Source of the DNA: an uncultured Acidimicrobiia bacterium
GTDB lineage: Bacteria > Acidobacteriota > Terriglobia > Versatilivoradales > Versatilivoraceae
Length of the DNA: 64,000 nt
NCBI GenBank assembly: GCA_963786955.1
Contig: CAWBAT010000005.1
Span: 650,860 to 714,859, forward strand
Reading direction: 5' to 3'
Each line of letters starts with the position of its first letter. Position 1 is the stretch's first letter. The position numbers were made by a program, and so were the translations under genes. Under the pieces are notes generated by a model. That model saw nothing but the letters and a program-made list of their open reading frames with translations, was not told the origin of the DNA and ran no database searches. Shown here piece by piece: positions 1 through 49,800 of this stretch.

Positions 1-276
1 CGGGAGCCATAATCCTTCCGCTCACTGTGGGAATCGATTTGGCCATCTGGGCAGCTTTGGGAGTAGCTGCCGGCGGCGGAGGAGGAGGAGGAGGAGGGGG
101 CGGGGGAGCCACAAGATAGGTAACGAACTTTTCCGGATTCAAAGTTTCCGTGAAAAACAGCGGAACTATGATCGCTACGATGAGAACCAAGGAATGGAGA
201 ATGGTCGAAACGATCAATGGAAATATTTTCTTTTGGATTCGAATGTTGGGATTACTCTCAATGAGAAGGTCAAACA
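1..276 (-). CDS. TonB-like energy transducer, N-terminal part (partial; continues past window start)
   Basis: Reverse-strand ATG at 276-274 preceded by AGGAGG. Translation MFDLLIESNPNIRIQKKIFPLIVSTILHSLVLIVAIIVPLFF... gives one TM helix then a Pro10 tract (the GGA/GGC run at 76-108), which is TonB-type architecture. Not in the ORF table because it runs off the edge. Confidence 0.45.
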
Positions 277-375
277 TTTCATCCTCCTTCTAGAAGGAGT
301 TTGTTCGAGGCGGGCGATGCTGAGTCGAAACCGCTTCCTATCCCATTCCTTCCCCCAGCCCACTTGACACAAATT

Positions 376-837
376 TCAGGTCACGAAATCATGTTCTGGA
401 TGTTTCACTGTCAAAACTGGACAGGGCGCCAATCGAACAACTTTTTCGGCGGTCGAGCCAAACACGAGATGGCTGATCCCCTTGTGCCCGTGAGTCGCAA
501 GGGTAATCACATCGATATCCATTTCTTTAGCGCAATTGACAATTTCCAGATACGCCTTCCCGGTCACAAAAAGAGGTTCAGCGTCAATGTTCTTGGCACG
601 TAATTCTTCTGTAATCTGCTCAAGGGTCTTCTTTTCCTGTTCTTGTACCTCAGCACTAAACTCGGGCACCGCGAAATGGTAAGCCTCCATACCCGCCCCA
701 ACAAACGGATGCTCACAGGCATGCATGACATATAATTTCGCCTTGAAGCTTTCCGCAAGGGCGGCGGCATACCGAAGTGCATGTTGCGAGTATTCTGAAA
801 AGTCCGTCGGAAACAAAATCTTTCGGATTTCAATCAT
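376..837 (-). CDS. universal stress protein (UspA family)
   Basis: 153-aa ORF with Usp fold signatures (ILFPTDFSEYS...VMHA...ATHGHKGISHLVFGSTAEKVVRLAPCPVLTV). AGGAGG RBS upstream of the ATG at 837. Confidence 0.85.
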   Translation of the reverse strand: MIEIRKILFPTDFSEYSQHALRYAAALAESFKAKLYVMHACEHPFVGAGMEAYHFAVPEFSAEVQEQEKKTLEQITEELRAKNIDAEPLFVTGKAYLEIVNCAKEMDIDVITLATHGHKGISHLVFGSTAEKVVRLAPCPVLTVKHPEHDFVT

Positions 838-1335
838 AGGAGCCTCCTTGCGGGAGCGAGACTAACCTCATTCAATCGGCTCAGCGGCCTTATCAATAGG
901 TGTGCATGATGGATACCAAAACAAAACATGAAGGGACAGGTTCGAGATCGGAAGACAGATAAAGCTTTGGAGTAGGCAGCAGAAGAGCAGCTCTCTGCGG
1001 TAATTCACCCGCCTTGGGGCAAAAGAGCCGATGGTTTGATAAGCCGAATTGTGCTATGAAGATATGGAGCACGGAAGGAGTTCCCGCAAGAAGGAGGGTT
1101 GTTCACTGATAGCTCCTTGCCGCTTCACCGCCTGCCGGGGAATAGAGCTAAGGACTTTGACACGAGGATTGGCGGATAGACAAGACCATCCCGCCAACTG
1201 GAAGTTTGCATGCCTAACCTGGCGAGTGTGAATCATTGGAGACCCGCTCTTGGTTTGAAATTTAATTTGAGGTTCATCAAATGATATCGCTTTCGAAGCG
1301 CCTGAATAGAGGCCCGTCACCATCTTAATTTACTG

Positions 1336-2799
1336 ATGCGGCTGGCGAAAAATCCCATTTCGCTTCTCGGAATTATCATCACTACGGTCAGCGGCATCCT
1401 GATATTCATCCTGACCATCATGGGGTTTCTCGAGTACCTGGCTAACCCCTACGTCGGGATCATCACCTTCCTCATCCTGCCTGCCTTCTTCATTACAGGT
1501 TTACTTCTCATTCCGATAGGGATCTGGCGGATCAAGCGCCTCCGCCTCCGCCTGCTGGCCGCCGGGAGCACCGTTCCAGAACTTCAGTTTCCGATCTGGA
1601 ATTTCAATGATGCACGGGTTCGAAGGATTGCAACATTTGTCATCATCGCTTCCGTCGTGAATGTGCTCATCCTATCGACGGCTACCTATAAAGGGATTCA
1701 CTACATGGAGGGTGTCGCTTTCTGTGGAACGGTCTGTCATGCCGTGATGAAGCCGGAGCACACAAGCCATGAAAACTCACCGCACTCCCGCGTAACCTGC
1801 GCCAGTTGCCATATCGGACCCGGGGCACCCTGGTTTGTAAAATCAAAGCTTTCCGGAGTTCGTCAGGTTTTCGCGGTCGCACTCCATACCTATAGCACGC
1901 CTATCGAAACACCTGTCCGGAATCTGCGTCCTGCACGGGATACTTGCGAGCAGTGTCATTGGCCTGAAAAATTTCATGACGACCGAGTAAAAGTGATTCA
2001 AAAATATAAGGACGATGAAAAAAATACCCCCATCACAACGGCATTGTTGTTAAAGGTGGGAGGATCCCGGGACAATGCTCGGAAATGGCAGCGGAATTCA
2101 CTGGTGGCATATGGCTCAAGTCAATAAAGTGACCTATATCGCCGACGAGAAGCGGGAAAAGATTTTCTGGGTTGAACACCAGAACATGAAAGGAGAGGAC
2201 ACTGTCTTTGAATTAGAAAACTCCGGCATCTCACCCCAGGAACTCAGCAAATATGAAAAGAGGGTCATGGATTGTGTTGACTGTCATAACCGTCCGACGC
2301 ATATTTACAAACTTCCCGAAGAGGCAGTTGACCAGGCGATCAGTGCTCATCAGATCGACGAAAGCCTCCCTTTTATCAAGAAGGAGGGGGTGGTTTTGCT
2401 CAGAGGCAAACTATCCGAGTGACGTGGAGGCGAAACGCCAAATTGAGTCCGGAATGATGAGTTATTATCAAAAACTATACCCGCAGGTCTATGAGACCCA
2501 GAAAGTCCAAATTCAACAGGCAATCACGGCTTTGCAGAACATATACTCCCGGAATGTGTTCCCTGAAATGAAAGTTGCATGGGGTACCTATCCAAACCAT
2601 CTTGGGTCATGAGAACTTTCCGGGCTGTTTTAGGTGCCATGACGACAGTCATAAGAGTAAGAGTGGCAAAACGATCACGCAAGATTGTAGTGCATGCCAC
2701 GATCTCCTCGCGGTCGAGGAAGAGAAGCCACTCGCTATTTCTGAAATTTTGCAGGGTAAGAATCCCCGCAATAAATTCCTGGATGGCCCACGGACTTAG
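1336..2799 (+). CDS. membrane-anchored multiheme c-type cytochrome, NapC/NirT-related (ImcH/CymA-like quinol dehydrogenase candidate); frame broken about 3 times
   Basis: Two N-terminal TM helices. CxxCH motifs CGTVCH, CASCH, CEQCH, CVDCH, CFRCH and CSACH are spread over ORFs 1336-2127 (f1), 2075-2422 (f2), 2253-2612 (f3) and 2575-2799 (f1). Together these read as one protein of about 488 aa. Confidence 0.65.
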
Positions 2800-2886
2800 T
2801 ACTCCATTTCATAAATACGGTGATGTATCTTAGTACTGCTATTCGTAATTGCGGTGACGTATCTTAAGAATAGGCGCCGCGTGGGG

Positions 2887-2946
2887 TTGAGGCTTTGAGA
2901 AAGCCTCAACGGCCTACAAAGTTGCAGGCCGGGTCACCGACCCGGC
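2887..2946 (+). terminator. two stem-loops downstream of the cytochrome gene (weak terminator candidates)
   Basis: gttgaggctt-tgag-aagcctcaac (10-bp stem, 2887-2910) and gccgggt-caccg-acccggc (2928-2946). No strong U-tract follows either. Confidence 0.3.
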
Positions 2947-3304
2947 GTTAACGTGATCGAATTTCTGAAAGCCAGACCAAAGTACATCCAAAAATTTGCC
3001 AGACGACACTAAAGCCAGAGTTTACAGGTATGAGGGTCAATTTTTGGTGCAAGTCACCGCTGGACAGAGAAGGCTTCTTGCGCTAAATTAATCAACACAA
3101 TCGGATTAATTTGCAGATTTTCTCAACACAATCCGATTCAATCAGTTAATAATTGTTTACTTGCTCTGCATTCGTAACTGTGGGGGAAATAACCGGCTTT
3201 GGATTAAAACTCCCTCTCCAAGTTCTTTCACAGAAAAAATCTAGCAATCATTTAACCTATTCATAAATAACTATTTAATAGAAAATATTTATTTTTTTTA
3301 CCTT

Positions 3305-3320
3305 TGGCAGGAAGCTTGCG
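3305..3320 (+). promoter_or_regulatory. sigma-54 type promoter candidate (-24 GG / -12 GC)
   Basis: TGGCAG-gaagc-TTGCG at 3305-3320, with GG and GC spaced 12 nt apart and about 45 nt upstream of the TTG start at 3365. An AT-rich region and direct repeats (caacacaatcggatt x2 at 3093-3140) lie upstream and could be UAS sites for an enhancer-binding protein. Confidence 0.35.
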
Positions 3321-3364
3321 AAATTATTCACCAGACAAGTAGGGATAGAAGGGAGAAGGTTGAC

Positions 3365-4324
3365 TTGAAAAGGAATCGTGTAATTGTCATTTTTTTATTC
3401 GTTTTTGCGGCAACCTCGGGAACATGGCTGCTGTTTCATCGAGCTCCACGCCCAGGTTCTCTATCGGATGTCAAGAAACGCCCTGAACTCCGTCCGTATT
3501 TTTTGTCGGCCTTGAAACTAGACCAGCCCATAGCTAAGGTTGGGTCAAATGAACTCAAGACTGATGAATTACGCGATTACCTGCTGTTGACATTTCAGGG
3601 CCAGATGACCCAGGTTTCTATCCCCCAGCCCGATCTGGTGGCAAAAATTTCTGGGGCTCTAGACCGGTTGATTGACGAAGAACTGCTGGCGCAAGCCGCG
3701 CAAAAGGAAGGCCTGAAAAGCTCTTTAGAGGGAGTCGAGAGGAAGCAAGACTTGGCGAAGAAGTATCTTGAAAGCCAGCTCGCAAAAGAGCCGCCCGTAA
3801 GCGACGTTCAGATGCGCGACTTTTACAGAAACCATGGTGAGAAGTTTTTGATTCCAGCCGGGGTTCAACTCCGAGAATTTTTCATACCTTTCACAGGGGA
3901 GAAGAGCAAAACGGGTAAAAAAGATTCTGCTTTTGATCTGGCCAAGGATCTAGCCGATCGAGTCACTAAAGGTGATTCAATCGAAGAGCTCAGTAAGAAA
4001 TATGTTTCAGAAGAGTATCGGGAGAGAACCCAAATTCACCTCTACAAAGGCGGCGTGACAGAACCAGTCGATGATCAGAAGGTGCTGGCGCTCCGACCGG
4101 GTCAAAGCGCCGGGCCTTTCCGTACCGAAGGCGGGTATTCCGTTTTTCAAGGGATCTCCCAGGAACGAAGTCGGTTTATTCCGTTTTACGAAGCCAAGGC
4201 TAAGATTCAATTATTTCTGGAAGCACGTCGGGTCGAGAATTTGAGGCAAAAGCTCGTGGATCAACTGAAGCAGCAGATTCCGATCGAGCGATACGAAATT
4301 GATAAACTGATCACAGTCAGTTGA
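3365..4324 (+). CDS. peptidyl-prolyl cis-trans isomerase, parvulin/SurA-like, secreted
   Basis: 319 aa with an N-terminal signal/TM (VIVIFLFVFAATSGTWLL). SurA-N-like helical region followed by a PpiC-type segment (GGVTEPVDDQKVLALRPGQSAGPFRTEGGYSVFQ). TTG start with GGGAGAAGG RBS. Confidence 0.55.
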   Translation: MKRNRVIVIFLFVFAATSGTWLLFHRAPRPGSLSDVKKRPELRPYFLSALKLDQPIAKVGSNELKTDELRDYLLLTFQGQMTQVSIPQPDLVAKISGALDRLIDEELLAQAAQKEGLKSSLEGVERKQDLAKKYLESQLAKEPPVSDVQMRDFYRNHGEKFLIPAGVQLREFFIPFTGEKSKTGKKDSAFDLAKDLADRVTKGDSIEELSKKYVSEEYRERTQIHLYKGGVTEPVDDQKVLALRPGQSAGPFRTEGGYSVFQGISQERSRFIPFYEAKAKIQLFLEARRVENLRQKLVDQLKQQIPIERYEIDKLITVS

Positions 4325-4517
4325 ATTATGCGAAAGAAAGATCTCGATAAAACAGGTTCCAACGTCTGGGAAGGTTTAGAGTTGTCAGAGAGTAAGTGGG
4401 TCAGGGAGTAGGATGTGGAAACATATTGGGAAGTCGCAGAGAAGATTAAGATTCTTGGCCCAGCGAAGGAATGGTTGTACGAATTCTTAACATTTACGCC
4501 CTTTAACGGAGGATGTT

Positions 4518-6576
4518 ATGGTTAGATCCATATCAAGCCGGGTAGTCATCATATGCACGCTCCTCTTCCTGTTCCTAGTCTGGATATCCATCCCAGTCTG
4601 GGGAAGTACGGTAGGGGACACGAAGCAAGGAGTCCAATTTAACAAGCATGAGCTGAGCTATTATCTCGACCAAAGCCAGGTCAATTTTGTCCGCCCTGGA
4701 CTAAAATTCACGATTAAGGCGGTCACGATTAGCGGCGACTAATAGGATTATCGTCACCTTCTTGATTACCGACAACAATGGCTTGCCTCTGGATCGATTA
4801 GGTGTCTCTACACCGGGGGTGGTCAGCACTAGTTTCATAGCCGCATATATTCCCAAGGATCAATCGCAATATACTGCTTACACAACTCGAATACAAACTA
4901 GTCCTATCAACGGAGTAAAGGCTGTGCAAGCCGGTACGGATTCAGGTGGAACTTATGCACAATTGTCTGATGGCCTGTATACATACACTTTCAATACGGT
5001 GCTGCCCTCAAATTTTGATCGAAACATGACTCATACTGTGGCTCTCTATGGTTCACGCAACCTCAGCGAATTCGATCTTGGGATTCAATATGATAACAAA
5101 ACAATTGACTGGGTCCCGAGCGGTGCTCCGGTCACTGTCGTACGCGACGTTGTCGTCACAGCGACCTGTAACCAATGCCACGATCCTTTGGCACTTCATG
5201 GAGGATCACGACGGGAAATCAAGGTCTGCGTGACCTGTCACACCCCTCAAACTACCGATCCGGATACCGGGAACACAGTTGACATGAAGGTCATGGTCCA
5301 CAAGATCCATGCCGGACCCAACTTGCCTAGTGTCAAGGCTGGGAAACCGTATATTATTATTGGCAATAGGCAATCGGTGAATGACTATTCTAATGTAACT
5401 TTTCCCCAAGAGCTCAACCACTGCGAGGGCTGCCATACTGGCAAAGGCACTCAAGTCAACAACTGGCTCTTGAAACCCTCTCGTGCGAGTTGCGGCTCCT
5501 GTCATGACGATGTGAATTTTGCAACAGGTGATAAACATGCCGGCGGCCCGCAGCCGTCGGACAACCTTTGCGCCAATTGTCATGTTCCTGAAGGAGAAGT
5601 GGATTTCGACGCGTCCATTAAAGGCGCTCATGTGATCCCAACATTATCCAAGGATTTGCCTGGGGTCAATTTTGAAATTTTGAACGTCAAAGACACCAAG
5701 CCCGGCAACAAACCGACAGTTACACTGAAGATCACGGATGACGACGGTTTCCCAATCGAAACCTCTCAGATGAACAGTTTAAGCTTAGTATTGGCCGGTC
5801 CGACTACTGACTACGCAGGCTTTGTGTCTGAAAATGCGCTTACAACTAAAAGCCAGGGTGGCATCCTGAACTATACATTCCTGAAGGCTATCCCTGCGGA
5901 CGCCAAAGGTAGCTATGCCATCTCTGTCCAGGGATACAGAAACATAACGCTTCAACCGGGAACCACTAGTGAGGTCAAGGACGTTCGCGATGCAGGATTC
6001 AACCCAGTTGTCTATGTAGCGGTGACGGATAGCAAGCCTGTGCCCCGTCGCCAGGCTGTCTCTCAAGAGAACTGCAACAGTTGCCATGCTCACCTGGCGC
6101 TCCATGGAGGGTCCCGTCAAAATGTTATGTATTGTGTCATGTGCCACAATGCAAATTGGGATGACAAGGCGCGCCGGCCAGCCGACAAACTGCCAGTCGA
6201 ATCCATCCACATGAAAACCATGATCCATAAGATCCACACTGGGGAAGAATTGGAGAATGATTTTACGATCTACGGATTCGGAAATGTTCCGGTCAACTTC
6301 AATGAAGTAACTTTCCCTGGAGATCGTCGCAATTGTGAGAAGTGCCATGTCAATGAATCTCAACAGCTACCGTTAGCGAAGGGAGTATTGCCTTCGGTGG
6401 CGCCGCGAGATTACATCAACCCGATGAAACCGGCGACAGCTGCTTGTCTCACTTGCCATACCTCTCAAGAAGCTGCTTCCCATGCGCTCTTGAATACCTC
6501 CACCCTTGGAGAATCCTGCAGTGTTTGTCACGGAACAACATCCGAATTCTCCGTTGACAAGGTTCACGCGCGGTAA
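4518..6576 (+). CDS. decaheme c-type cytochrome, MtrC/OmcA-like (probable outer-membrane/extracellular); one frame break at about 4742-4762
   Basis: ORF 4762-6576 has 10 CxxCH motifs (CNQCH, CVTCH, CEGCH, CGSCH, CANCH, CNSCH, CVMCH, CEKCH, CLTCH, CSVCH) in 604 aa. ORF 4518-4742 supplies a GGAGGA RBS and signal peptide, and its sequence joins smoothly (…KAVTISGD | ITDNNGLPLD…). Confidence 0.75.
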
Positions 6577-6596
6577 GTCGTTCGCTCGACCCTTAT

Positions 6597-6755
6597 CCAG
6601 CCGCTCTTCGCAGGGCGGCTGGAGTTTCTTGTTGTGTGAATGAAAGGTATCTTCTCACCCCGACCCCTGGAGGTGAGAAGAAATTGTAGCGGCGCTCTAT
6701 GAGCGCCGACCAAGCCGTTGAGATGAAAAGAAGACGGCGGTCACAGACCGCCGCT
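6597..6755 (+). terminator. four consecutive GC-rich stem-loops between the two decaheme genes (terminator/attenuator or REP-like)
   Basis: Hairpins at 6597-6622 (ccagccgc/gcggctgg, followed by a T-rich run), 6651-6680 (cttctcacc/ggtgagaag), 6689-6709 (gcggcgctc/gagcgccga) and 6733-6755 (acggcggtc/gaccgccgt). Confidence 0.45.
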
Positions 6756-6873
6756 ACAACCAATTCTTTCACGCCTTCCCTCTCCACTTGGTGAGGGGAA
6801 CGAATTGAGGATGACCTGAAAGTGTAACTTTACTTCATGCGTTTGTACGAGACACAAGGACGGAAAGAAGAGG

Positions 6874-7878
6874 ATGCAATCGCTTGCCAACCCATTGTCA
6901 TCAACCGGAAAGGGTGTGAATGTTATGCCCGTTCGTCTCTCTAGGAATGCCGCTTTCATCCTGGCGTTCATGTTGACTTTGGTTTTCCCCAGTTTTGCCA
7001 AAACGCCCAAAAGTCAGCAAGCCGCGCAAGAGCCGAGCCCCAAAGCCATCGTGGCTGAGGCAAAGAACGACTATGTCAGCTCAGCTACCTGCTCTTCCTG
7101 TCATGAGGCTCAAACGACGAAATTCGCAACCAACCCCCACCAAATCCTTGATATGAAGGCGGATAAGGGTTGGAAAGATCGTGCCTGTGAAGCCTGCCAC
7201 GGTCCTGGACAAGCCCATGTCGATGCTGGAGATGGAAGTCATGTCGTTCTTCTTAAAAGCAGCTCGACGAACGCCGAAATCAACAAGACCTGTCTCAGTT
7301 GCCACGCGGACAGCAACACGCAGGCAGGGGGGCCCAACAACTTGCATCGAAAGGAAAACCTGGCCTGCACAGAATGCCACTCAATTCACGAACCCAAGCA
7401 GAAGCAGCATTTGCTGACAGCAAGCGTCGATCGAGTTTGCACGGCCTGCCATAAGGATGTTTTAGCAGCGTTCTATATGCCCTTTCATCATCGATTACTC
7501 GAAGGGGCTATTCACTGTGTAGATTGTCACCAGCCGCACAGCGGCCTGATGCCCAAGATGGCCAGACTTTCTTTTGGAAATGAATCGCCCTGCGTCAAAT
7601 GCCATTCCGACAAGCGGGGGCCCTTTGCCTTCGAGCATCCCGTGATGCGCCTCGAAGGATGTATGGCATGCCACGCACCTCATGGTTCCATTAACTCCAA
7701 GATGCTCATTCGGACGCAACTCAGCTTGATGTGTCTGGAATGTCACACTTTTACCCCTGGAGTTTTGGCCAGTCAGCCTCCATCGTTCCATGATTTGCGT
7801 AGTGCCCGGTTTCGGAATTGTACGACTTGTCACGTCAAGATCCATGGTTCCAATGTGGACCGATTCTTAAGGCACTAA
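6874..7878 (+). CDS. periplasmic decaheme c-type cytochrome, MtrA/DmsE/PioA family-like
   Basis: 334 aa with a signal peptide (alternative start at 6925, MPVRLSRNAAFILAFMLTLVFPSFA). It has 10 CxxCH motifs, 9 of them canonical (CSSCH, CEACH, CLSCH, CTECH, CTACH, CVDCH, CVKCH, CMACH, CTTCH) and one CLECHT. Size and heme count match MtrA-type porin-inserted cytochromes. Confidence 0.8.
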   Translation: MQSLANPLSSTGKGVNVMPVRLSRNAAFILAFMLTLVFPSFAKTPKSQQAAQEPSPKAIVAEAKNDYVSSATCSSCHEAQTTKFATNPHQILDMKADKGWKDRACEACHGPGQAHVDAGDGSHVVLLKSSSTNAEINKTCLSCHADSNTQAGGPNNLHRKENLACTECHSIHEPKQKQHLLTASVDRVCTACHKDVLAAFYMPFHHRLLEGAIHCVDCHQPHSGLMPKMARLSFGNESPCVKCHSDKRGPFAFEHPVMRLEGCMACHAPHGSINSKMLIRTQLSLMCLECHTFTPGVLASQPPSFHDLRSARFRNCTTCHVKIHGSNVDRFLRH

Positions 7879-7890
7879 CAGAGCTAATCC

Positions 7891-9983
7891 ATGCGAAACC
7901 TGAGAAAAATGCGCCAGACGGTTCCTCAGTTCTTTACAGGTTGGGTTCCTCTACGTCTCCATACCCAGCGGCGACGGGGCCCAGGAATGTTTTTCTTCTT
8001 GCTCATACTGAGCTTCGGGGGGAGTTTTCTTCACGCGCAAGAGCGACCGTTTGAAAATCCCAAGTCGGCCCCGGACACTGGCAATCCGGTTCTGATTCGT
8101 GGGATGGAGGCTACCGGGGTCGTCGATGTGGGTTATCGCAGTATTGCCGGATTTAACGGGAGTCAAGACTACTATCGGAGTGTTGTCAACCTGGGTAATG
8201 GCCCACGCCTTCTCTTCGCGAATATGGATTTTCAGAGCCCACTGGGGACCAAGAAATATTTCGACAAGCTTCATTTCGATGCGTCGGCTTGGGGTGGTGA
8301 TCCTTACAACACCATTCGCGTCTATGCGCAAAAAGCCGGAGTTTATGAGTTCAATTTCAATTACCGGAACGTGGATTACTATAATTATATCCCCACTTTT
8401 GCCAACCCTCTGCTGCTCGAAGGAGTCCTGGTAGGTCAGCATTCATATGATACGGCGATTCGCACTATGGATTTTGATTTGACCCTTCGTCCGGGAAAGA
8501 AAATCTCTCCATATTTTTGCCTACTCTCGATCTTCTGGTTTTGGCCCGGGAATCACCACATTCACCGGAGCCGGCAACGAATTCCCCGTTAACAACAATG
8601 TGAGCAACAGTAGTAACTATTATCGTGGTGGTGTGACACTGAATCTTCGCAAGACTAATCTGATCTTCGAACAGGGCGTCGTGTCGTTTAAAGACGATCA
8701 AACGGTTTACTGGCAGGGAGGAGTGAATAAGGGAAACCGTAAAACACCCCTGCTTGGTGAAACAACCTATCTGGATCAACTCGACGAGTACTATCATGTA
8801 CGTGGGACAACTCCAGTCAGCCGATTTCAAATCGTATCGACACCATGGGAAAAATTGACTGTCACCGGCCGGTTCGTCTATACCCAGCCGAATTTAGAAT
8901 TTTGATTATAACCAACGCTCTGCCGGGAATTTTGTTTCTTTTGAGGTGGCAAGGATTTTCACCGGCGATGTCTCTAATGCCGTTTCAGACGGAAAGTTGC
9001 CGCACATTCTGGGAAACGTATCCGTTGAATATCGACCTTGGGAAAGGGTTCGGATAATCGACAATCTGATCACGGACCGATTTCATACCGACCCCAGTTC
9101 TACTCTCGGGCGCACCTTGACTGGTACCGATCCTCTGTCTGGCTCTCCGGACCCTGACGGGACGTTTAGCTATACCACGACAGATTCGAATCGTCTGGCT
9201 GTGAATCTGAATCAAAATCAGTTGGAGGGAATCGTCGATCTCACCTCCAAACTCTCAGTACGAGGCGGTTATCGCTACGTGTGGTCTGATACCCAATTAG
9301 TCTCATTCAATCTGGAGGGCGAAAACCAGGCCATTAGCATCAACCGCAATGTGGCGATAGCAGGGTTTAATTACCGGCTGCAACGTAAGGCCAGCCTGGG
9401 GCTGGATTTAGAGATTGGCCAGGGGAACCGAGTCTTTTCTCGAACGGACATTCTCGATTACCAGAAAGTTCGCATCCGTGGGCGTTACAAGATCTGGAAC
9501 CCCCTGGTGATTAGTGGATCCTATTTTCTGCTGAACTACCAAAACGGCCAGCGGGATATCGATTACAATTTCAATAGTTACGGTTACAGCCTTTCCGCCA
9601 TTGTGGCTCCCAAAGGCGGGAAGCGATTCATGGCGACCTTGGACTATTCCAAAGGCGATCTTAATTCGGATATTCTAATCCTGATTCCTCAAACTCTGAC
9701 GAGGAGTCAATCCATTTATATTGAAAACAGTAATTTCGGAAACTTGAACCTTGATTTCGGGATCTACCGGGGTTTTCGATTTAATTTGGGCGGTTCGGTG
9801 ATGACAACCTCCGGGAATCGTCCGCTGAATTATTATCAGCCCCACGCCGGTTTTCTCATTCCCCTGGGTAGCAAGTTGTATTGGACAACCGAATGGCGTT
9901 ATTACGACTTCAATGATAAAGAATTTGCTTTCCAGGATTTTAGAGTTCACCTGATTACCGCCGGAATTCGATTCCGCTATTGA
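7891..9983 (+). CDS. large outer-membrane beta-barrel, MtrB/PioB-like porin candidate; 2 frame breaks
   Basis: ORFs 7891-8592 (f1), 8600-8905 (f2) and 8946-9983 (f3) are contiguous and together give about 697 aa. Signal peptide MFFFLLILSFGGSFLHAQE. Alternating amphipathic Y/F/N/G-rich strands, with a C-terminus …GIRFRY typical of OM barrels. Sits immediately 3' of the MtrA-like gene. Confidence 0.55.
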
Positions 9984-9993
9984 TTTTTCCGAT

Positions 9994-11215
9994 ATGACGC
10001 ATGGTCCATTTGCCTGCATAGAGCGCATCCTGCACTCGAGGAGAGGTGCAAGTATGAGAGTAGCTGCTGCCATACTGATTGGCCTGTTGGGGACGCTTTC
10101 GTCCCTGGGACAAACACCTCAGAAGGTGAAGCTTTCTGATTTCAAGCTCGCTTCGAGTTGCCAGCCCTGCCACGAGGAGATTTATGCTCAGTGGCAAACC
10201 TCGACCCATTCCAAGGCATTTGTCGATCCTTTATACCAAGCAGTTGTCCGTAAAGCCGTCGAGGAAAGCAAAGGGGGCTTAACCCAATTTTGTGTTTCCT
10301 GCCACGCACCCCTGGCGACCGTCACCAGTTCCATTCCACCCGATCTGTTTCAGAAAGAGCAGATAGACCCACGGATTGAGAACGGGGTAACCTGCGAGTT
10401 CTGCCACACGATCTCTGGTAACAGAAGTGAACCTTAACAAACTCAGTCTCGGGGCTTTCCTTTTCCCAAGAGCTATCCAAACGAAAATTCTTTACGGACG
10501 GCATGCGGATGCTACCAACGATGCGCATCCGACCCAACCCTCGCCGTTTCTTGTTGTCCCGGAATTATGCGGGACCTGCCATCGATTTGGACACCCCGTT
10601 TCAGGGATGCCGGTTCAAGACACCTATCAGGAATGGAAGCAAAGTCCCTATGCCGCAAAAGGGACCCGATGTCAGGATTGCCATATGCCCTCGTATCAGG
10701 GGAAAGTGTCTGAGTCAGGCAAAGAACGTTCTGAAATTCATGCCCACATTTTTAGGGGCGGACACACGGAAATGATACGACAGGCGGCCATCGTCAATAT
10801 CACGGCTAATCGAGACTACATCGAACCCCTAGATGCGTCGGTGGTAGTCACTAATGTCGGAGCCGGCCATATGATCCCGACCGGACTCCCTGCTGTCCGT
10901 GAGATGTGGTTAGAGGTTACAGTCCAGAGCCAAGGGAAAATCTTGAGTACTCAAAAGAGGGTTTTCGGCCTGGAAGTTCTCAATGCGGAAGGGAAGCCGG
11001 CTTTGCCGTGGGAAGCCACGAAGCTCGGGAAAGACACCCGGATTGCCCCTAAGAAATCCCGTTTAGAGAAGTTTCGATTCGAGGTTTCCGGTTCGGAAAA
11101 CATTCGCATTGAAGCCAAGCTCCAGGAACAATTATTGTCCGACCAGGCCGCCAAATTTGCTGGCATTCCGCCCACTCCGCCTCAATCGATGGCAGAAACA
11201 TCGATCTCCTGCCTC
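9994..11215 (+). CDS. periplasmic multiheme (>=5 CxxCH) c-type cytochrome; frame break near 10430; 3' end uncertain
   Basis: Signal peptide, then CQPCH, CVSCH, CEFCH, CGTCH and CQDCH across ORFs 9994-10437 and 10427-11356. The table ORF reads through into the start region of the next gene. Confidence 0.6.
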
Positions 11216-11216
11216 A

Positions 11217-12079
11217 ATGAGTTCAGCTCCGGGTACCGAGGAGAATTTCCCTCTCCAACAGTTCGCGATGCGGCTTTCTTTGGCCGTGGGCTTTTTCATG
11301 CTCGTGACCAAAACCTTCGCCTACTGGCTGACTGGGTCGGCCGCAATCCTCTCTGATGCTGCAGAATCCGTCGTCCATGTCGTTGCCGTTTCCTTTGCGG
11401 CTTACAGTCTTGGCTCAGTGTCAAACCGGCGGACCGCAGCCATCTGTACGGACATGATAAGATCAGTTTCTTCTCGGCGGGGTTTGAAGGGGCGATGATC
11501 ATCATCGCCGCTTTCTATATCATCTATGTTTCAATTGAAAAATGGATTTCAGGGCTGAGGCTGGAGCACCTTGGCACGGGAACGGGCCTGACCTTATCTG
11601 GCCTCTGATCAACGGCGGCTTAGGTCTTTATCTGGTCACCATTGGGAAGAAGAAACCACTCTCTAATTCTTGAGGCCAACGGGAAACATGTCCTCACGGA
11701 TTGCTGGACAAGTCTGGGCGTTGTCGTCGGCCTGTTCCTGGCCATGATCACGGGCTGGTTGGTTCTGGATCCGATTATCGCGATCCTGGTAGCTTTAAAT
11801 ATCCTGTGGACCGGCGGTCAATTAATCCGCCGATCCATCGGTGGTTTAATGGATGAGGTGGATCCGGAAACAGAGGCAAGAATCAAGAGCATGCTTGACC
11901 CGATTACCAAACCCAAGGCATCGAATACCATAGTCTGCGACACCGGAACACGGGAAGTACGCTCTGGATCGAACTGCATATGCTTTTCCCCAAAGGGATC
12001 CTGCTGGAAAACGCTCACGCGATCGCCACCCAGATTGAAAACCGTTTAAAGACAACCTTCCCACTAAGACCGAAGTAAC
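11217..12079 (+). CDS. cation diffusion facilitator (CDF) family metal efflux transporter; multiple frame breaks
   Basis: Fragments in three frames carry CDF signatures: LSLAVGFFMLVTKTFAYWLTGSAAILSDAAESVVHVV…, …HLYGHDKISF…, the TM region ILEANGKHVLTDCWTSLGVVVGLFLAMITGWLVLDPIIAILVALNILWTGGQLI, and a C-terminal cytoplasmic domain …KGILLENAHAIATQIENRLKTTFP. Confidence 0.6.
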
Positions 12080-12391
12080 CACCCATTTGGAAACCCTCGA
12101 AGACCATGCGGATATTCATACCGACCGGCACGACCAAGGAACGTGAGCACGAAATCGGAAGGTTAAGATGAGCGGTAAGAGAGTGACCTTTTAAAGTCAC
12201 AGGATCTGCACCTCCATCTCCCCACTCGATACGATGACCCGTAAAAATCGGATGACTCACGAATTGTCCAGCTGGAATTACAGATAAGTCCAATCATGTC
12301 CGAGACCTCCTCCTTGATCTTCAGACCGTCCATTTGTGCATCGACTATCATTTTGTGATCGTTTCATTTTACGAATGGCACTTCGCAGAAC

Positions 12392-12962
12392 ATGTCCTTC
12401 TCGAAAGAGCGCCCACAATCGCTGGGAGAGGAAATCGCAAACAGCATAAGCCACGGAGTTGGCCTGCTGGCAGCAACTCTCGCGATCCCAGTGCTCGTGA
12501 TTGGGGCTATCCGACGAGGAGGCATTGGCACCTTGATCGGCGCGAGTGTCTTCGGGGTCACCATGTTGCTACTGTACTCAGCCTCCACCCTTTACCACGC
12601 GTTGGCCCGTAACCGTGCCAAACGCGTGTTTCAGGTCCTCGACCACAGCGCGATTTACTCTATTAATCGCCGGCACCTACACTCCATTTGCTCTCGGTGT
12701 GCTCCGGGGTGCTTGGGGGTAGACGCTGCTCGTTCTGGTTTGGAGCCTGGCACTTACAGGTGTCATGTTGAAAGCTACGGGTAACATGCGGCATCCGATC
12801 TATTCGACCTCCCTTTACCTGGGATGGGCTGGCTTGTCATTGTCGCGTTCAAGCCCCTCTACATCCATGTGCCAGCATGGGGTCTGTTCTGGCTCTTGGC
12901 AGGTGGCATTGGATACACAGCGGGGATTGGATTTTTCGCGGCCGCGACGGCTTCGCTATAGC
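12392..12962 (+). CDS. hemolysin III / PAQR family membrane protein; frame breaks
   Basis: N-terminus EIANSISHGVGLLAATLAIPVLV…VFGVTMLLLYSASTLYHAL…RVFQVLDHSAIY is typical of the family. The C-terminal TM helices continue in other frames (TYTPFALGVLRGAWG…, …LVWSLALTGVMLKATG…). Confidence 0.6.
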
Positions 12963-13404
12963 CACTTCATTTGGCACCTTTTCGTCATGGCAGGTACAGC
13001 CTGTCATTTCATCGCAGTCTTGCGGTTTGCATTCTGACAGCAGAGAGCATTTGCGGGCTTGGAAAAATCAAATCACTGTACTGAAGTCAGATTTGAAAGA
13101 ACCGACCAACCCCTTTCTAATCCCCTCCAAAGGGCGGAGTGTCGAGAGCTTCTGGCAAAGGATAAATCCGGCCAAGGAGACAATTCCCAGCTTTCACCCC
13201 CTCTCTCATATCGCTTTTGTCTTGAAAAAGACTCCTTCCTTGCGTATTCTTTGGCATGCCAATGGCTTTTGCAGTCTCCGCGCAGGCCACGAGGGACCCC
13301 GAGGGGATGTCCCTTCTTGAAATTGTCACTCCCCGCTCGAAATTTGCTTATCTTCTTGAAGAGTTCAGTCGTTTCGGGAAAATCGGACTCCAGGTGATTC
13401 CATT

Positions 13405-15873
13405 TTGAGTCGTCAAAGTCCACTCTCAAAACCTGACAACATGGATCCTAATCTGGTCTTTGTACGTGTTGAAGGTGATGTTTTGTCTCTGCGCCCATTC
13501 CGCATACTGGCTCACTATGCGCGGAATGCTCAGGCCTTTACAGAGCGGGCCTTCCGACTCCCTGCCGTCGACTCTCATGACTCTCCTGCGGCCGGCCTTA
13601 TCCGTTGAAAATCCTGTTCTGGGGACTCGACTGCTCTATCTGCCACTTCGCGGAATGAGCCGCGACAGACTCGATCTTCTGGGCGAAGAATATTTCAACT
13701 ATGTTTTGTCTTCCCGATTAAGAAAGGAAGGGATTCGCCATATCGAAGAATTGCACGCGATGGGCAAAGAAGATCGTATTCGTGAGCGATCAATTGGATC
13801 ATCTCATCCGACCTCTGGCACTCCACCTTAAAGCCCATTTTCTCGCTACGAATCGCCTCGAATTTCGGGATGATCTGGCAACAGGGAGGCTTCTTGAACC
13901 TGTCATCCCCGCTTTGGGGGTCACCGCCGGTTTAACCTCGACGGAACGGAAAGAGTCCACCGGCTGGAAGGCCTTCGAAAAGGAGGTGGGGCCCCAAGAA
14001 TTCTCGACGGTGAATCCTCTTTCGATTCTCCCCGTGCACCGCCGAATCCGGGCGATCCATCATCCTATGGTCCAGTTCGCAAGACGGGATTCCACACTGA
14101 AGCCGTTGTCGGTCCGTGGAAGTTTATCCGGCAAAAAGATTCTTTTAATCGGCTGCACCGGATTCATCGGGAAGGTATGGCTGACCATGCTGCTGAAGGA
14201 TTTACCCGAAATCGGCCGCGTCTTCTTGCTGATCCGGCGTCATGGAAAACGGTCGGCACTGCAACGATTTGAAAAAATTGTTGCACGAGTCTCCGACCTT
14301 CAAACCCTTTCATGAATCCTATGGCAATCAGCTGGGTGAGTTTCTCGCTGAACGGATTGAGGTTATCGAGGGAGACGTTTCAGAGCCCCACCTAGGCCTT
14401 AACCCACAAACCGCTCGGCGCCTGTATGGCGAGCTCGATCTCATTGTCAATTCAGCAGGTTTGACAGATTTCAATCCGGACCTCCGGCTGGCCCTTTCGA
14501 CCAATGCGGACAGCGTGTTGCACCTGATCGAGTTTCTCAACAATTCGCAGAAGGCAGGGCTAGTCCATATTTCCACGTGTTTTGTTAACGGTCGCACCGA
14601 CGGCCGGGTCCCTGAAGAATTGCGGCGCAATTACACACCGAAAGGCAGAGTTGAATTTGACGCCATCTCAGAATGGAAGTTTCTGCACCAGGAAATCAAA
14701 CGGGTCGAAGAAGAATCTGAAAGCCCTTCACTCAACGAACAATTCCGAACCCAGGTGGTTTCCCGTTGGAAGGATGGGGAAGAAGCAGGTCCCGGACAGA
14801 AAGGTATTCAGAACCGGATCCGCAATTTGCGGACTCGCTGGGTGCGTGATCAGTTGATCGAAATGGGAGTGCAACGAGCTCAATATTGGGGATGGCCTAA
14901 CATCTATACCTTTACCAAGAGCCTTGGAGAATCCCTCCTGGAAAACAAAGGAGCCAGGCTCCCCTTCAGTATCGCACGGCCCTCCATAGTGGAATCCTCG
15001 GTTTTTCAGCCGTTTCGAGGCTGGAATGAGGGAGTGAATACGACAGCCCCGCTTTCCTATCTGCTCGGCACCTATTTTCGTCAGCTTCCGTCCAACAAGC
15101 GAAAGCGGCTCGATGTCATACCGGTCGACTTGGTCTGCAGAGGGATAACCCTGATTGCCGCCGCGCTAGTGCAACGAGGTCATGAAAAAGTTTATCAGCT
15201 TGCAACCTCTGCGACGAACCCGGCGAACATGCGACGGACGATTGAGTTGACCGCGTTAGCCCATCGTAAGCATTATCGTTCTTTGGAGGGGCTAGAACAT
15301 TGGCTTCGGGCCCGGTTCGACGCGATTGCCGTTTCGAAAACCCGCTACAAATACGTGTCCCTGCCAAGATTAAAAGGATTGCTACAAAGCGCTGAGAGCG
15401 TCCTTTCGCTCTTGCCATTCAAAGGGGACACTCTGGTGCGAAAGCAAAGGGCCCTGGACCGAGTGCAAAAAGTCATCGGACTTTACGAGCCTTTCATCTT
15501 GGATAATGACTACTTCTTTGCCGCCGATCATATCAAGGCGCTGGCCGAGTCGCTGCCGGATGAGGAGGCTCAAACGTTTGGTTACGATGTCTCTTCGATC
15601 GATTGGTATGACTACTGGATCGATCTCCATGTCCCGGCCTTGAGACGATGGACTTATCCTTTAATCGAAGGGCGTCGCCCGGAAACAGGCTTGTTACCGC
15701 GAAATTTCAAGCTCCCGGTAAAAGAAGAAGGTCATACTTCCGAGCTTTCGGAATCACTCGACCCAGCCTCAGCTAAGCCAGCAACTTCTTTGCTTCCATC
15801 CGAAAATTTGGGCAATGCTGCCGGGGCACCGGCAGGAGATAATTTTCAGGTGGCTGACCAGGATGGTAATTGA
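13405..15873 (+). CDS. HAD-IB-like hydrolase domain apparently fused in frame to a fatty acyl-CoA/ACP reductase (NAD_binding_4 / male-sterility domain); about 3 frame breaks
   Basis: N-terminal part resembles HAD-IB (…EDRI[V]FVSDQLDHLIRPLALHLKAHFLATNRLEFRDDLATGRLLEPV). In-frame continuation with no stop leads to a Rossmann motif KKILLIGCTGFIGKV. ORF 14242-15873 holds the reductase core (…DLIVNSAGLTDFNPDLRLALSTNADSVLHLIEF…HISTCFVNGR…) and a FAR C-terminal domain. Confidence 0.55.
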
Positions 15874-17019
15874 GCATAACTATGGCTACTTTTGTTACAG
15901 GCTCAACAGGATATCTTGGGGCCCATGTTGCTTCGGAGCTGCTCTCAAAACATAACTCTAAGTTAAGCCTCCTGGTGCGAGCCAAAGATCACCGGGGGGC
16001 TGAGTTGAAACTTTGGAAGGCCATGCAATTACACCTCGGATTTTCCGAGTTTGTCCATTGGCTAGAAACAAACATCGAAATCTTTCTTGGCGACATTACT
16101 CTCCCCCGCTTTCGGGTTAGATGAAGAACAGTACGTCCAGCTGCTCAAGAAGACTGATTCGGTCCTTCATATCGCGGCATCGCTAAATCGTCGCTCCGAG
16201 AAATCCTGCCTGAACGTAAATCTTCGCGGCACGCTGGAAGTGCTTCAGTTCGCCCGGAGAGTTAGTTCCTATCATGGCCTTCGGCGTTTCAGCCACGTGA
16301 GCACAGTCGCCGTCGCGGGAGCACGAAGCAACGAAGTTGTCAAAGAGGACGAATCCATTGATTGGAACCGGTCGGATTTTGACCCGTATGCGAGAACCAA
16401 GAAGTTCAGCGAGCTGATGATTCGGGAATTGCTTCCTGATATCCCCTTGACCATCTTCCGTCCTAGCATTGTTTTGGGGGATAGCCGCTATGGCGCGACA
16501 ACCCAATTCGACATGGTGGAGGCATTCGTCTTCTTAGCGAAATTAGGGTTGCTTCCACTGCGACCTCACGATCGTTTGGACATCGTGAACGTCGATTTTG
16601 TCGCCAATTCCATTGTCTCTCTCCATCAAAAGGAGAAAACCTTATACGATACCTACCATTTATCTTCTGGCGTTCATTCCCCTACCTGCCGGCAGATTAC
16701 TGAGGCGCTCAGCGCCGCTCGACAGAGGAAGGGGCCCTTCTACCTGCCATCTCTCGCAAATCCTTTTAAGGGAATCGTGAACTGGATGGCAAATCGTCGT
16801 GGAACTTCTGTGGGGCACCTGGGATCATTACTCAAGGTTTTCTTACCTTATCTCTTATGGAACACCGTATTCGACAATCAACGAGCGGTTCAAGAAGTCG
16901 GCCAGCATCCTGTACCTTTTCCTGAGTACTGCTACCCTTTGTACAATTTCTCGGTCAAGCACAATTTTGCTTATCCTTACCAGGACTGGCCGGCGCTTGA
17001 AGGGAGTTCCACCGCATGA
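15870..17019 (+). CDS. SDR-family thioester reductase / NAD-dependent epimerase-like (second acyl reductase); one frame break near 16090-16124
   Basis: [11 protein letters not shown] Rossmann motif, then …[28 protein letters not shown]…[10 protein letters not shown]…[12 protein letters not shown] (YxxxK), which is a TE-reductase pattern. ATGA start overlaps the upstream gene. Confidence 0.6.
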
Positions 17020-27474: not shown

Positions 27475-27702
27475 TCATGTCATTCTTTGCTTGCTGAGCG
27501 GTACTGGTGTCCCAACACCCCACTGGCGGGCGGCCAACTTCAGCGCCAGTCCAGAGACCAGCGCGGCGGCGAGGTTGGTTTTCGTTTTCATGGTCGTGTC
27601 CTTTCTTTGTTTATCGGTTGCCGCGCCCGCCGCCTTGCGACGGCGGGCGCAGTTCTTATTACACTTACTGTGCGGCGGCGATGGTGGCTTTGCCTTCTTC
27701 AA
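27475..27702 (-). CDS. signal-peptide-like mini-ORF (MKTKT…) sharing a leader/RBS context with the sulfatase genes
   Basis: 75 aa beginning [21 protein letters not shown]. The upstream context gaaaggacacgaccATGaaaac parallels the sulfatase starts at 30076 and 33654. Could be a remnant N-terminus or a real small secreted peptide. Confidence 0.25.
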
Positions 27703-30076
27703 GTTTCTGCTGGTCCTGCGCCGTCAATGGCACGGGTTTCAAGTAAACCGTCACCTTCTTGAGCTCGCCGGTGAACTTGAACGGGACGTGGTAATCCTCG
27801 GTGACGGGTGTGCCGGTGTCCTCGCCGCAATCGAGCGTCTCGTCGAGCGAGAGGCGGAAGGCCAGTGTACGTTCGATGCGGCCGGTGGCCACGGTCTTGC
27901 CGTCCACCTGGATCGTGCCGACGCCGCCTTTGCCGAGGCCACCGCCATCGTATTTGAAGTCGTAAACGATGGTGTGCGCGCCTGGCGCAAGCTTGTCCTT
28001 ACCGGTGACAAGGTAGTGGGCGACACCGGCGAGGTTGTAGCAGAAGACCGGCTTGCCTTTGAGCAGGTAAAGTCCCCACCCGGAGAAACGTCCACCATGC
28101 GTGAGCAACATGCCTTCCGCGCCGCCCTTGGGGATGTCCACCTCGGCTTTGATCTGCCAGGACTTGTTCTTCGTGTCCGGCGCTGCGCCCTCGGGGATGC
28201 GCACGAGGCCGGGGTAGTAGGTGAACTCGTCCCGCCCGCGCGTCAGGCTGGGCCGGATGTTCACATCGAAGCGGTTAATCCTGCTGTTCTCGATCGGCAG
28301 CACATTGTATTTCTCGGCTTCCTTCCAGAAGAGGTCCTGCAGCTCCTTGAGCTTGGCGGGCTCTTTGGTCGCGAGGTTGTTCGCTTCGGAGAAATCCTCG
28401 CTGACGTTGTAGAGTTCCCACTTGTAGTCAAGGACGGAAGGCAATCGCCCTTCGATCTCGGCCGCCGAGTCCCACGGCGCAACCCCCGGCGTCGTGCAGG
28501 CGACCCAGCCATCGTGATAGATGCCCTGGTTGCCAAACATCTCGAAATACTGCGTCGTGTGTTTCGACGGCGCTTTTGCGTCATCGAACGTATAAACGAG
28601 GCTCGCGCCTTCAATGGGTTTCTGCGCCACACCGTTGATGCTCGTCGGCGCGGGCACACCGGCGGCTTCGAGCAACGTGGGCATGATGTCAATCACCGAG
28701 CAGAACTGCGAACGGATGCCGCCCACGTCCTTGATGCGCGCCGGCCAGGAGATGACCATGCCGTTGCGCGTGCCGCCGAAGTGCGAGGCGATCTGCTTGC
28801 ACCATTGGAACGGCGTGTCCATCGCGTGCGCCCAACCGACCGGGTAGTGGTTGAAGGTGTTCGGCCCGCCGAGTTCGTTCATGCGGCGCAGGACTTCCTT
28901 CATGTCTTCGGGGATGCCGTTGAACACCGTCATCTCGTTGAGCAGGCCTTGCATACCGCCTTCGCCGCTCGCGCCGTTATCGCCCTGGATGTAGATGACG
29001 AGCGTGTTGTCCAGTTCACCCTGCGCTTCGATGGTATCGAGGATGCGGCCCATCTCGGTGTCGGCGTGTGAGAGCGCCGCGGCATAGACTTCCATCATGT
29101 GGGCAAAAACTTTCTTCTGGTCGGCGTTCAAGCTGTCCCACGCAGGAATGCCAGCGGAACGCTCCGTCAACTTCGTATTCGCCGGGATGATGCCCGCCGC
29201 CTTCTGCCGCGCGAAAGTTTCCTCCCGCACCTTGTCCCAGCCTTGATCGAACTTTCCCTTGAACTTCGCGATCCAATCCGGCGGTGCGTGATGCGGCGCA
29301 TGGGCCGTGCCCGTCGCGTAGTAGGCGAGGAAGGGCTTGCCCGGCGCGGTCGCGTGCTGCATCCGAATCCAGTCAATGCAATGGTCGGCCATGTCATTGT
29401 CGAAGAAGTAATTCTTCGCGTCATGCGGCGGCTCGATGGGTTTCGTGCCCTCGAAGAGCGCCGGATTCCACTGACTCGTGTCGCCGCCGATGAAGCCGTA
29501 GAAGTATTCAAACCCCAGCCCGGTGGGCCACAGGTCGAACGGCCCCGCCTGGCTGGTCATCCAGTCGGGGACGTTGTGGTTCTTGCCATACCAGGACGTG
29601 TTGTAGCCGTTCTGCTTCAGAATCTCGGCGAACGTCCCGTCGCTCTTCGACATCAGGGAGTTGTAGCCGGGGAAGCCAGTGGCCAGTTCCATGATGACGC
29701 CGGTGTTGGCGCTGTGATGATTGCGTCCGCTGAGCAGTGCGGCGCGCGTGGGCGAGCAAAGCGCCGTGGTGTGGAATTGATTGTAGCGAAGTCCGTTTTT
29801 GGCCAGGCGATCCATCGTCGGCGTGGGAATCGGCCCGCCAAACGTGGATGACGCCCCGAAGCCCACATCATCGGTGAGGATGACGAGAATGTTCGGCGCG
29901 CCTTTCGGTGCTGCGACACCCTTGGGGAAATCCGGCGTGGACTCCTTGGGCGTGCGGCCAATCTTGCCGCCGAAGGGTTGTTCGGGTCGGGGCAGGACTT
30001 GTTGCGCCCTTGCCGGTAGCGCATAGGCTGTGGCCAGCACAAGGATCAGAACGGCGAGCATGGTTTTGGTTTTCAT
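27665..30076 (-). CDS. arylsulfatase-family sulfatase (Cys-type), secreted
   Basis: 803 aa with signal peptide [24 protein letters not shown]. Sulfatase signature ILTDDVGFG…[15 protein letters not shown] (C-x-P-x-R), followed by a C-terminal beta-sandwich extension. Confidence 0.9.
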
Positions 30077-35877: not shown

Positions 35878-35975
35878 TGGCGGAGGCGAATGGGAATCGA
35901 ACCCACCTATCGCAACAAAGTTACGACACGCTGGTTTTGAAGACCAGGAGAGTCACCAGGCCCTCTGCACCTCCG
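35878..35975 (-). tRNA. selC: tRNA-Sec candidate (anticodon UCA), class II with a long variable arm
   Basis: Reverse-complement reads CGGAGGUG-C-AGAGGGCCUGGUGACUCUC-CUGGU-CUUCAAA-ACCAG-C-GUG-UCGUAAC-UUU-GUUGCGA-UA-GGUGGG-UUCGAUU-CCCAUU-CGCCUCCG-CCA. Anticodon loop CUUCAAA (U33, UCA, A37) is identical to E. coli selC. It has an 8-bp-capable acceptor, 5-bp T-stem and TTCGATT T-loop, 7-bp variable stem, and encoded CCA. About 97 nt. Confidence 0.65.
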
Positions 35976-43044: not shown

Positions 43045-43078
43045 CTTCACGTCTGATGGAGGCTGCTTTCACCGTTTT

Positions 43079-44107: not shown

Positions 44108-44116
44108 TATAGCCCT

Positions 44117-45471: not shown

Positions 45472-45643
45472 ATCTCGAAGCACATCGTTCTCGATTAGGG
45501 AATTCTTAGGCTTATTTCAGCAGGGGGAAGTTGACACAGGGTCTCCCGTTTGTCAGCCGAAGCTTGGCCGCCCTTAAGGCTTATGGTTTGATTTTAGAAG
45601 TTGAAGGCTGCGCTTAATCTTCAATTCAGAGAATCTCGGAAAC

Positions 45644-46921: not shown

Positions 46922-46961
46922 CAGCGGTCCACGGATCGCGGCAGAGTAATATCGAGTTCCT

Positions 46962-49783: not shown

Positions 49784-49800
49784 TTTCAAAGAATGGACTT

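Follow-up and report, generated by a model that had tools for sequence, protein, structure and literature searches.

The window analysed here, a 64,000-nt stretch of DNA (contig CAWBAT010000005.1 of assembly GCA_963786955.1, positions 650,860-714,859, forward strand), very likely holds at its positions 4518-9983 the core of a seven-gene cluster for extracellular electron transfer, in an uncultured member of the Acidobacteriota related to Terriglobia. The source is recorded as an uncultured Acidimicrobiia bacterium and placed by GTDB in Acidobacteriota; Terriglobia; Versatilivoradales; Versatilivoraceae. Comparison of sequences and structures identifies a surface decahaem cytochrome of the MtrC type, a decahaem of the MtrA type and an MtrB-like large barrel sized to sheathe MtrA, and the conduit that these three proteins make up is well supported. 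A previous sequence-only reading had described an mtrCAB-type module in this span, and the features it named are present at those coordinates; the matches to the hidden Markov models (HMMs) of MtrC and MtrA have E-values of 6e-158 and 5e-71, and chance is therefore excluded. The cluster extends beyond the span first noted, with an ImcH-like cytochrome and a peptidyl-prolyl isomerase (PPIase) upstream, and a periplasmic pentahaem cytochrome and a cation-diffusion-facilitator (CDF) metal exporter downstream, so that the order is ImcH-like gene, PPIase, mtrC, mtrA, mtrB, pentahaem and CDF exporter, all on the + strand. Four related loci recur in what follows: L001, L002, L003 (CAVVYL010000014.1) and L007 (CAWEPG010000006.1).

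The first core gene (4518-6576, +) encodes an extracellular decahaem cytochrome of the MtrC/OmcA family. Its open reading frame (ORF) 4762-6576 gives 604 residues with exactly ten CxxCH motifs, the number counted originally, and its true N-terminus is a 74-residue ORF at 4518-4742, joined to the larger piece across an insertion near 4739. The corrected protein has 685 residues, as does the intact homologue of L002. The OmcA/MtrC assignment, for which an HMM search had been proposed, is borne out by TIGR03507, matched at 527.3 bits (cut-off 209.3) over profile positions 14-672 of 672, with 520 bits for the L002 orthologue, and PF22113, the domain II/IV of MtrC and MtrF, is matched in two stretches. 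Within the 604-residue piece, residues 136-270 and 438-586 hold five haem motifs each, giving the two pentahaem domains with non-haem domains between them by which the family is recognised. Among solved structures, the protein matches MtrF, OmcA, MtrC and UndA; its ten haem motifs can each be aligned with those of MtrF (3PMQ, E 4.7e-28). The signal is of the signal-peptidase-I type; the sole non-haem cysteine lies within it, and the cysteines of the mature protein are those of the haem motifs only. Terminator-like in character, a GC-rich hairpin of 12 bp that runs into a T-rich tail (6596-6623, +) stands 20 nt past the mtrC stop and is conserved in L001 and L007. The spacer that separates mtrC from mtrA (6577-6873) also contains about 100 nt of extra sequence with GC-rich hairpins at 6688-6709 and 6733-6754, and both the insert and its two hairpins are absent from L007 and L001; the insert was considered as a repeat element and rejected, being single-copy in the window.

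The second gene (6874-7878, +) is intact and encodes a 334-residue decahaem of the MtrA/DmsE family, predicted to be periplasmic and to span the outer membrane. The size and the ten motifs reported earlier stand, and the one motif that had been set apart as non-canonical (CLECHT) is an ordinary CxxCH, so that all ten are canonical. TIGR03508, the DmsE/MtrA family model, is matched above its threshold (239.2 bits, cut-off 192.2), and the alignment with MtrA in the Shewanella complex (6R2Q chain A, E 9.6e-32) covers residues 62-327 with the ten motifs in register. The sequence-only reading had offered clustering with other decahaems, such as NrfB-like ones, as a ground for refutation, and the scores favour MtrA: NrfB itself (2OZY) is matched at E 2.9e-5, the NrfB models give 21-41 bits against cut-offs of 167-184, and the GSU2203 decahaem family gives 192 bits against 325. 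By these profile and structure-sequence scores, MtrA appears to be the nearer relative of the protein, ahead of NrfB-type pentahaems and GSU2203 decahaems.

The third gene (7891-9983, +), which starts 13 nt past the mtrA stop, encodes the MtrB-like outer-membrane beta-barrel sheath. The stretch is read as three ORFs in three different frames; once corrected, it gives 696 residues ending in GIRFRY, in agreement with the roughly 697 residues and RFRY terminus first described, and an intact 696-residue homologue that is 91% identical (P0001) is found in a public metagenome. The protein is linked to MtrB by fold comparison only, its placement from sequence having failed. The barrel is wide enough to hold MtrA (MtrB of 6R2Q has 26 strands), and the structural alignment with MtrB shows 12% identity. 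The sequence-only reading had named two refuting outcomes, this porin not being predicted as a barrel of at least 20 strands and the decahaem clustering away from MtrA; both tests were made, and the call survived each of them. The Pfam family MtrB_PioB (PF11854) is matched at E<0.01 by 25 of 69 members of the porin family, at best with 5.8e-9, and a full-library search with the porin profile returned 1941 cluster representatives, 555 of them at E<=1e-30.

The architecture of the locus is preserved among its relatives. When one genome of each GTDB species was scanned, 557 stretches proved to encode porin relatives, and the best 80 loci were examined; almost all come from metagenome-assembled genomes (MAGs) of Bryobacterales, Bryobacteraceae, Solibacteraceae, Terriglobia or unclassified Acidobacteriota. 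The porin directly follows mtrA in all 80, and the order mtrC-mtrA-mtrB, counted in 80 species genomes of Acidobacteriota, is found in every locus of sufficient length. Porin identity is 35-41% to Bryobacterales and 49-60% to homologues apparently outside the Bryobacterales group. L002, a 287-kb contig of an Acidobacteriota MAG, carries the seven-gene cluster intact and on one strand, in the order 495-residue NapC/NirT-type cytochrome, 314-residue PPIase, 685-residue MtrC, 307-residue MtrA, 696-residue porin, 73-residue monohaem, 384-residue pentahaem and 312-residue CDF transporter, with Usp preceding the 495-residue cytochrome on the opposite strand. L007 shows the same order minus the 73-residue gene, and a few of its own frames are broken; the contig of L001 starts within mtrC and holds the part from there to the CDF gene, intact. 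The genes of the window match the cluster of these three loci gene for gene; the order of outer cytochrome, periplasmic decahaem and porin, which had been likened to that of Shewanella, is thus kept in intact relatives together with the flanking cytochromes. The 73-residue product is a secreted monohaem with one CxxCH, encoded between porin and pentahaem in L002 (12124-12345) and L003 (11245-11457) and absent from the window, L001 and L007. In a Solibacteraceae MAG (L044, 2688-5504), a second, divergent pair of mtrB-like (24% identity) and mtrA-like (38% identity) genes lies just upstream of the main mtrCAB.

As five of the seven cluster genes are interrupted in the window, by some 11 single-base indels, we considered whether the cluster might be a decaying relic. 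The breaks (three in the ImcH-like gene, one in mtrC, two in the porin, two in the pentahaem and three in the CDF gene, plus one in a neighbouring hemolysin-III gene) were located by tblastn of intact orthologues against the window, the second pentahaem break being found by a check of the gene end. Those of the core genes were placed by translating in three frames and by aligning the DNA with that of two relatives, as 1-base insertions near 4739 in mtrC and near 8514 and near 8896 in the porin. It is highly improbable that mtrC, mtrB and the flanking cytochromes were truly inactivated by these frameshifts. Three breaks within the three core genes and eight more in flanking ones would fit it, as would the two insertions that lie outside homopolymer runs, but unrelated neighbours (the CDF, hemolysin-III and acyl-CoA reductase-like ORFs) likewise carry about one indel per kb, the related L007, which is the nearest long contig and comes from a long-read MAG, has frame breaks of its own, and mtrA is intact. 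Moreover, the frame-corrected products contain no nonsense codons and are 82-94% identical, over the aligned pieces, to their protein counterparts in L001, where the genes that follow the truncated mtrC are intact. Because of this density in unrelated genes, the stop-free corrected frames and the intact relatives, the breaks are almost certainly assembly indels and not gene decay, and the genes are therefore taken as functional. The split of the porin into three frames, noted previously, is real, and reflects these widespread indels instead of any feature specific to the porin. Throughout positions 1-16000 of the window, about one indel per kb splits many genes, such as those for the CDF exporter (11214-12137) and hemolysin-III (12392-13037) and the acyl-CoA reductase-like ORFs (13782-15873), and an ORF-based annotation under-calls genes here unless the frames are corrected.

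Upstream of the core, positions 1336-2799 (+) encode an inner-membrane multihaem cytochrome that belongs with the ImcH-like quinol:cytochrome c oxidoreductases. The gene lies in four frame pieces separated by three indels, and the pieces found by tblastn cover residues 15-495 of an intact 495-residue homologue (P0121). The ImcH family is characterised by three N-terminal transmembrane (TM) helices, an adjacent CX3CH motif, homology to NapC/NirT and five to nine further CX2CH motifs (PMC4251993, PMC6295460). All of these traits are found in the protein, which has hydrophobic segments at 10-28, 41-59 and 98-116, an atypical CX3CH (CGTVCH) at 130 followed by five CxxCH, and a match of 35 bits (cut-off 24.1) to the NapC/NirT N-terminal region PF03264; its sole match among PDB sequences is the NrfH quinol dehydrogenase (2J7A). 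The motifs stand at 149, 174, 223, 332, 449 and 469 in P0121 and at 134, 158, 207, 316, 433 and 453 in the ImcH homologue of Geothrix fermentans, with a spacing of 24/49/109/117/20 equal to that of the Geothrix protein, and the spacing in the Solibacter usitatus homologue is nearly equal to that of P0121 (Table S3, PMC6295460). We use the label ImcH-like because this layout of motifs and TM segments matches both the definition of ImcH and the spacing in Geothrix and Solibacter; no curated ImcH HMM was matched in NCBIfam or Pfam. The NapC/NirT-like cytochrome of the sequence-only reading is therefore real, and ImcH-like describes it more precisely.

Among 81 loci, 23 have an ImcH-like gene (FCGxxCH plus five CxxCH) in the examined flanks, and of the 44 whose flanks reach 4 kb or more on each side, 16 do; it often lies directly after the porin or a tetrahaem, in the same orientation. 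In the window, L002 and L007, it precedes the PPIase on the same strand. The latter gene (3365-4324, +) encodes a membrane-anchored isomerase of the parvulin/SurA type, with one N-terminal hydrophobic segment and weak matches to the Pfam families Rotamase, Rotamase_2 and SurA_N_3. It lies between the ImcH-like gene and mtrC in L002 and L007 as well, with a match upstream of mtrC in L003, and is found in all members of the subclade that extend upstream. The isomerase may act in the periplasm as a folding factor of the conduit.

Downstream of the porin lies the gene of a periplasmic pentahaem cytochrome of the c552/ExtK type (9994-11217, +). The further pentahaem first placed at 9994-11215 is indeed there, with five CxxCH and two indels, and ends at about 11217. 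It is similar to the Thermochromatium tepidum pentahaem c552 (5ZE8, E 1e-19) and, at a greater distance, to ExtKL and MccSep. This cytochrome is confined to a small subclade made up of the window, L001, L002, L003 and L007; many Bryobacterales loci have instead an unrelated tetrahaem of four class-I cytochrome c repeats. Its identification with the tetrahaem reported for acidobacterial loci was rejected, as it has no detectable similarity to the latter. Rejected too was its reading as a selenoprotein: what looks like a stop at 10437 comes from a frameshift, and Leu occupies the position that selenocysteine (Sec) has in MccSep. A tRNA-Sec gene does occur elsewhere in the window (35878-35974, -; anticodon TCA, Rfam 68.7 bits), adjoining an ORF of the aldehyde-dehydrogenase family (34136-35872, -), and the organism therefore probably makes selenoproteins. 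These relationships bear on another reading, in which the porin-cytochrome complex serves a process other than mineral respiration, for example as a DmsEF-type conduit to an extracellular reductase, or in an ExtHIJKL-type reduction of selenite or tellurite. The MtrA-like protein does fall within the broader DmsE family, the pentahaem is distantly related to Geobacter ExtKL (by the name of the NCBIfam model) and to the selenoprotein MccSep, and the tRNA-Sec gene is in the window; nevertheless, the pentahaem scores 62-80 bits with ExtKL, far under the cut-off of 250, and has Leu at the Sec position, no dmsAB-like or other terminal reductase gene is seen in the cluster, and a surface decahaem of the MtrC family is present. 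We consider such a process very unlikely.

The last gene of the cluster (11214-12137, +) was recovered as tblastn pieces with three indels and encodes a CDF exporter of the Mn/Fe type. The orthologue in L002 matches the CDF model TIGR01297 at 204 bits (cut-off 82), and its best specific models are MntE (243 bits) and FieF (136 bits), both under their cut-offs. The gene directly follows the pentahaem in all subclade members but L003, and its start overlaps the pentahaem stop (ATGA), as in L001; from this overlap, the two are predicted to be translationally coupled.

A number of observations weigh against assigning the locus to a quinol-to-surface Mtr pathway, or limit how far the assignment can be taken. 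The porin matches PF11854 marginally, at 19.8 bits against a cut-off of 23 and over 109 residues; NCBIfam, TIGR03509 included, gives no match to it; a profile of 79 porin-family sequences did not find MtrB among PDB sequences, its sole match being a chance one to OmpH1; and ten more distant members of the family have no PF11854 match. The MtrB/PioB identity proposed for this protein hence stood in the fold and size of the barrel and missed the sequence thresholds. The porin has no cysteine anywhere, and so no CXXC motif, unlike its counterpart in Shewanella; an N-terminal CXXC is typical of MtrB in metal-reducing Gammaproteobacteria, Shewanella included, and is absent from PioB and MtoB. In Shewanella, MtrC and OmcA are lipoproteins and their domain III has a CX8C pair, whereas this pair is absent from the MtrC described here and a lipobox, as sought with a crude regular expression, is absent from it and from 62 of 62 acidobacterial homologues; the lipobox is a feature of the Shewanella members and lies outside the definition of the TIGR03507 HMM. 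Among the flanking genes, the class of the 1336-2799 product is set by its architecture and not by a direct alignment with GSU3259, and the parts given to the PPIase, the pentahaem and the CDF exporter are read from gene position alone. Our literature searches turned up no experimental work on an acidobacterial Mtr system, and in Shewanella such conduits work in both directions (cited in PMC6295460), which concerns the direction of flow.

All together, homology and gene position lead us to infer a route from the ImcH-like protein through the pentahaem and MtrA in its barrel to MtrC. The ImcH-like protein would oxidise menaquinol at the inner membrane, and the periplasmic pentahaem would carry the electrons to MtrA, which, threaded through the MtrB-like barrel, would hand them over to MtrC at the surface; MtrC would in turn reduce humics, oxides of Fe(III)/Mn(IV) or comparable acceptors. 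The PPIase would help to fold the conduit, and the CDF pump would remove Fe(II)/Mn(II) that had leaked in. Within such a conduit, an outward flow, with reduction of metals or humics, is the probable direction, and we favour it because of the surface MtrC, of the co-transcribed exporter of the Mn/Fe type and of the ImcH-like partner, Fe(III) reducers having been the only reported source of ImcH homologues (PMC6295460). The statement of the sequence-only reading that direction cannot be read from sequence holds in so far as these conduits are reversible and the direction is unproven. The reversibility seen in Shewanella would also allow an inward conduit, bringing electrons from Fe(II), minerals or partner cells to the quinone pool as proposed for the iron oxidisers with MtoAB or PioAB; the porin without cysteine agrees with the lack of CXXC in PioB and MtoB, and a CDF exporter would be useful in Fe(II)-rich habitats too. 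However, the classical modules of iron oxidisers have no surface MtrC such as the one present here, the linked partner has the ImcH architecture, and no cbb3 or Cyc2, carbon-fixation or other lithotrophy genes are seen beside the cluster, which makes an inward flow unlikely.

Other observations concern the source and the remainder of the window. L007 and L003 are both titled 'uncultured Acidimicrobiia bacterium' and yet carry outer-membrane barrel genes. The NuoD protein of the window is 98% identical to one on the L007 contig, its next best named relatives being Terriglobia and Acidobacteriota; L007 is counted as a relative because its DNA identity with the window is just 88-90%. Given the barrel genes and the L007 NuoD, nearest to Terriglobia and Acidobacteriota, the 'Acidimicrobiia' titles of the two look like taxonomic mislabels. 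Between 26000 and 34000 of the window, the G+C content is 0.57-0.62, against about 0.50 elsewhere, and this block, which contains ORFs of the sulfatase family at 27665-30076 (-) and 32020-33654 (-), may be an acquired island. A segment of the nuo operon (NuoD, NuoF, NuoG) and an RHS-repeat ORF, at 43000-50300 and 51001-52548, seem to be housekeeping and toxin-type genes of an ordinary kind.

Acidobacteriota rank among the most abundant bacteria in soil and peat, and what they contribute to the cycling of iron and manganese is poorly defined; the present locus and its intact relatives provide a compact seven-gene candidate pathway from the entry at the inner membrane up to the surface of the cell. 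Acidobacterial MtrCAB as such was published in 2022, as the Group 5 of Baker et al., which comprises Acidobacteriia only (Bryobacterales and unclassified) (PMC8805035). The cluster is a further, ordinary complete example of it, and in this respect the gain is incremental. Modest additions are the recurrent linkage of ImcH and mtrCAB in Acidobacteriota, where two surveys had reported none and for which we found no report in the literature, and a subclade with accessory genes of its own, together with 62 MtrC homologues without a lipobox, a mature MtrC whose cysteines all belong to haem motifs and a porin without cysteine.

With Group 5, the locus shares the phylum, the order mtrC-mtrA-mtrB, a single mtrC without duplicate and a porin family common to Bryobacterales. 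The published description of that group gives it a tetrahaem immediately downstream of mtrB, and neither duplicates of mtrC nor an inner-membrane quinone oxidoreductase in the vicinity (PMC8805035). In contrast, the subclade of the window has the c552/ExtK-like pentahaem downstream, followed directly by the CDF gene in the window, L001, L002 and L007, and the PPIase upstream, and an ImcH-like gene lies upstream in the window, L002 and L007. This linkage supplies the inner-membrane partner that the 2022 survey did not find near acidobacterial mtrCAB, and hints at an outward flow to acceptors of high potential. The likeness to the Shewanella MtrCAB (6R2Q; MtrF 3PMQ) lies in two decahaems with alignable motifs, a barrel of the size and fold of MtrB and the C-A-B order, whereas the low identity of the porins in the structural alignment, the missing lipobox and extra cysteine pair of MtrC and CXXC of the porin, the conserved terminator-like hairpin between mtrC and mtrAB, and an ImcH-like inner-membrane partner in place of CymA set the two systems apart. 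Compared with ImcH of Geobacter sulfurreducens (PMC4251993, PMC6295460), the protein has six motifs instead of seven, and its gene is linked to mtrCAB, whereas the 2018 survey of Zhong and Shi saw no mtrAB adjacent to any imcH (PMC6295460). The pentahaem resembles the c552 of T. tepidum, whose own function is uncertain, and Geobacter ExtK in its five CxxCH, a conserved GHxxPTG motif and a similar length, and differs from them in its low identity, its score under the ExtKL cut-off and the absence of Sec or Cys at the MccSep active site.

From these comparisons, we would put at about even chances that the cluster is a mosaic, in which a Shewanella-type MtrCAB is wired to a Geobacter-type ImcH and, in the subclade, to an ExtK/c552 pentahaem, with a dedicated PPIase, a coupled Mn/Fe exporter and an MtrC that is not a lipoprotein. 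If so, it would lead from quinol to the cell surface as a self-contained pathway, one that went unrecognised because the two surveys reported no linkage between imcH and mtrAB; as ImcH serves high-potential acceptors in Geobacter, the mosaic pathway is predicted to work on such acceptors as well.

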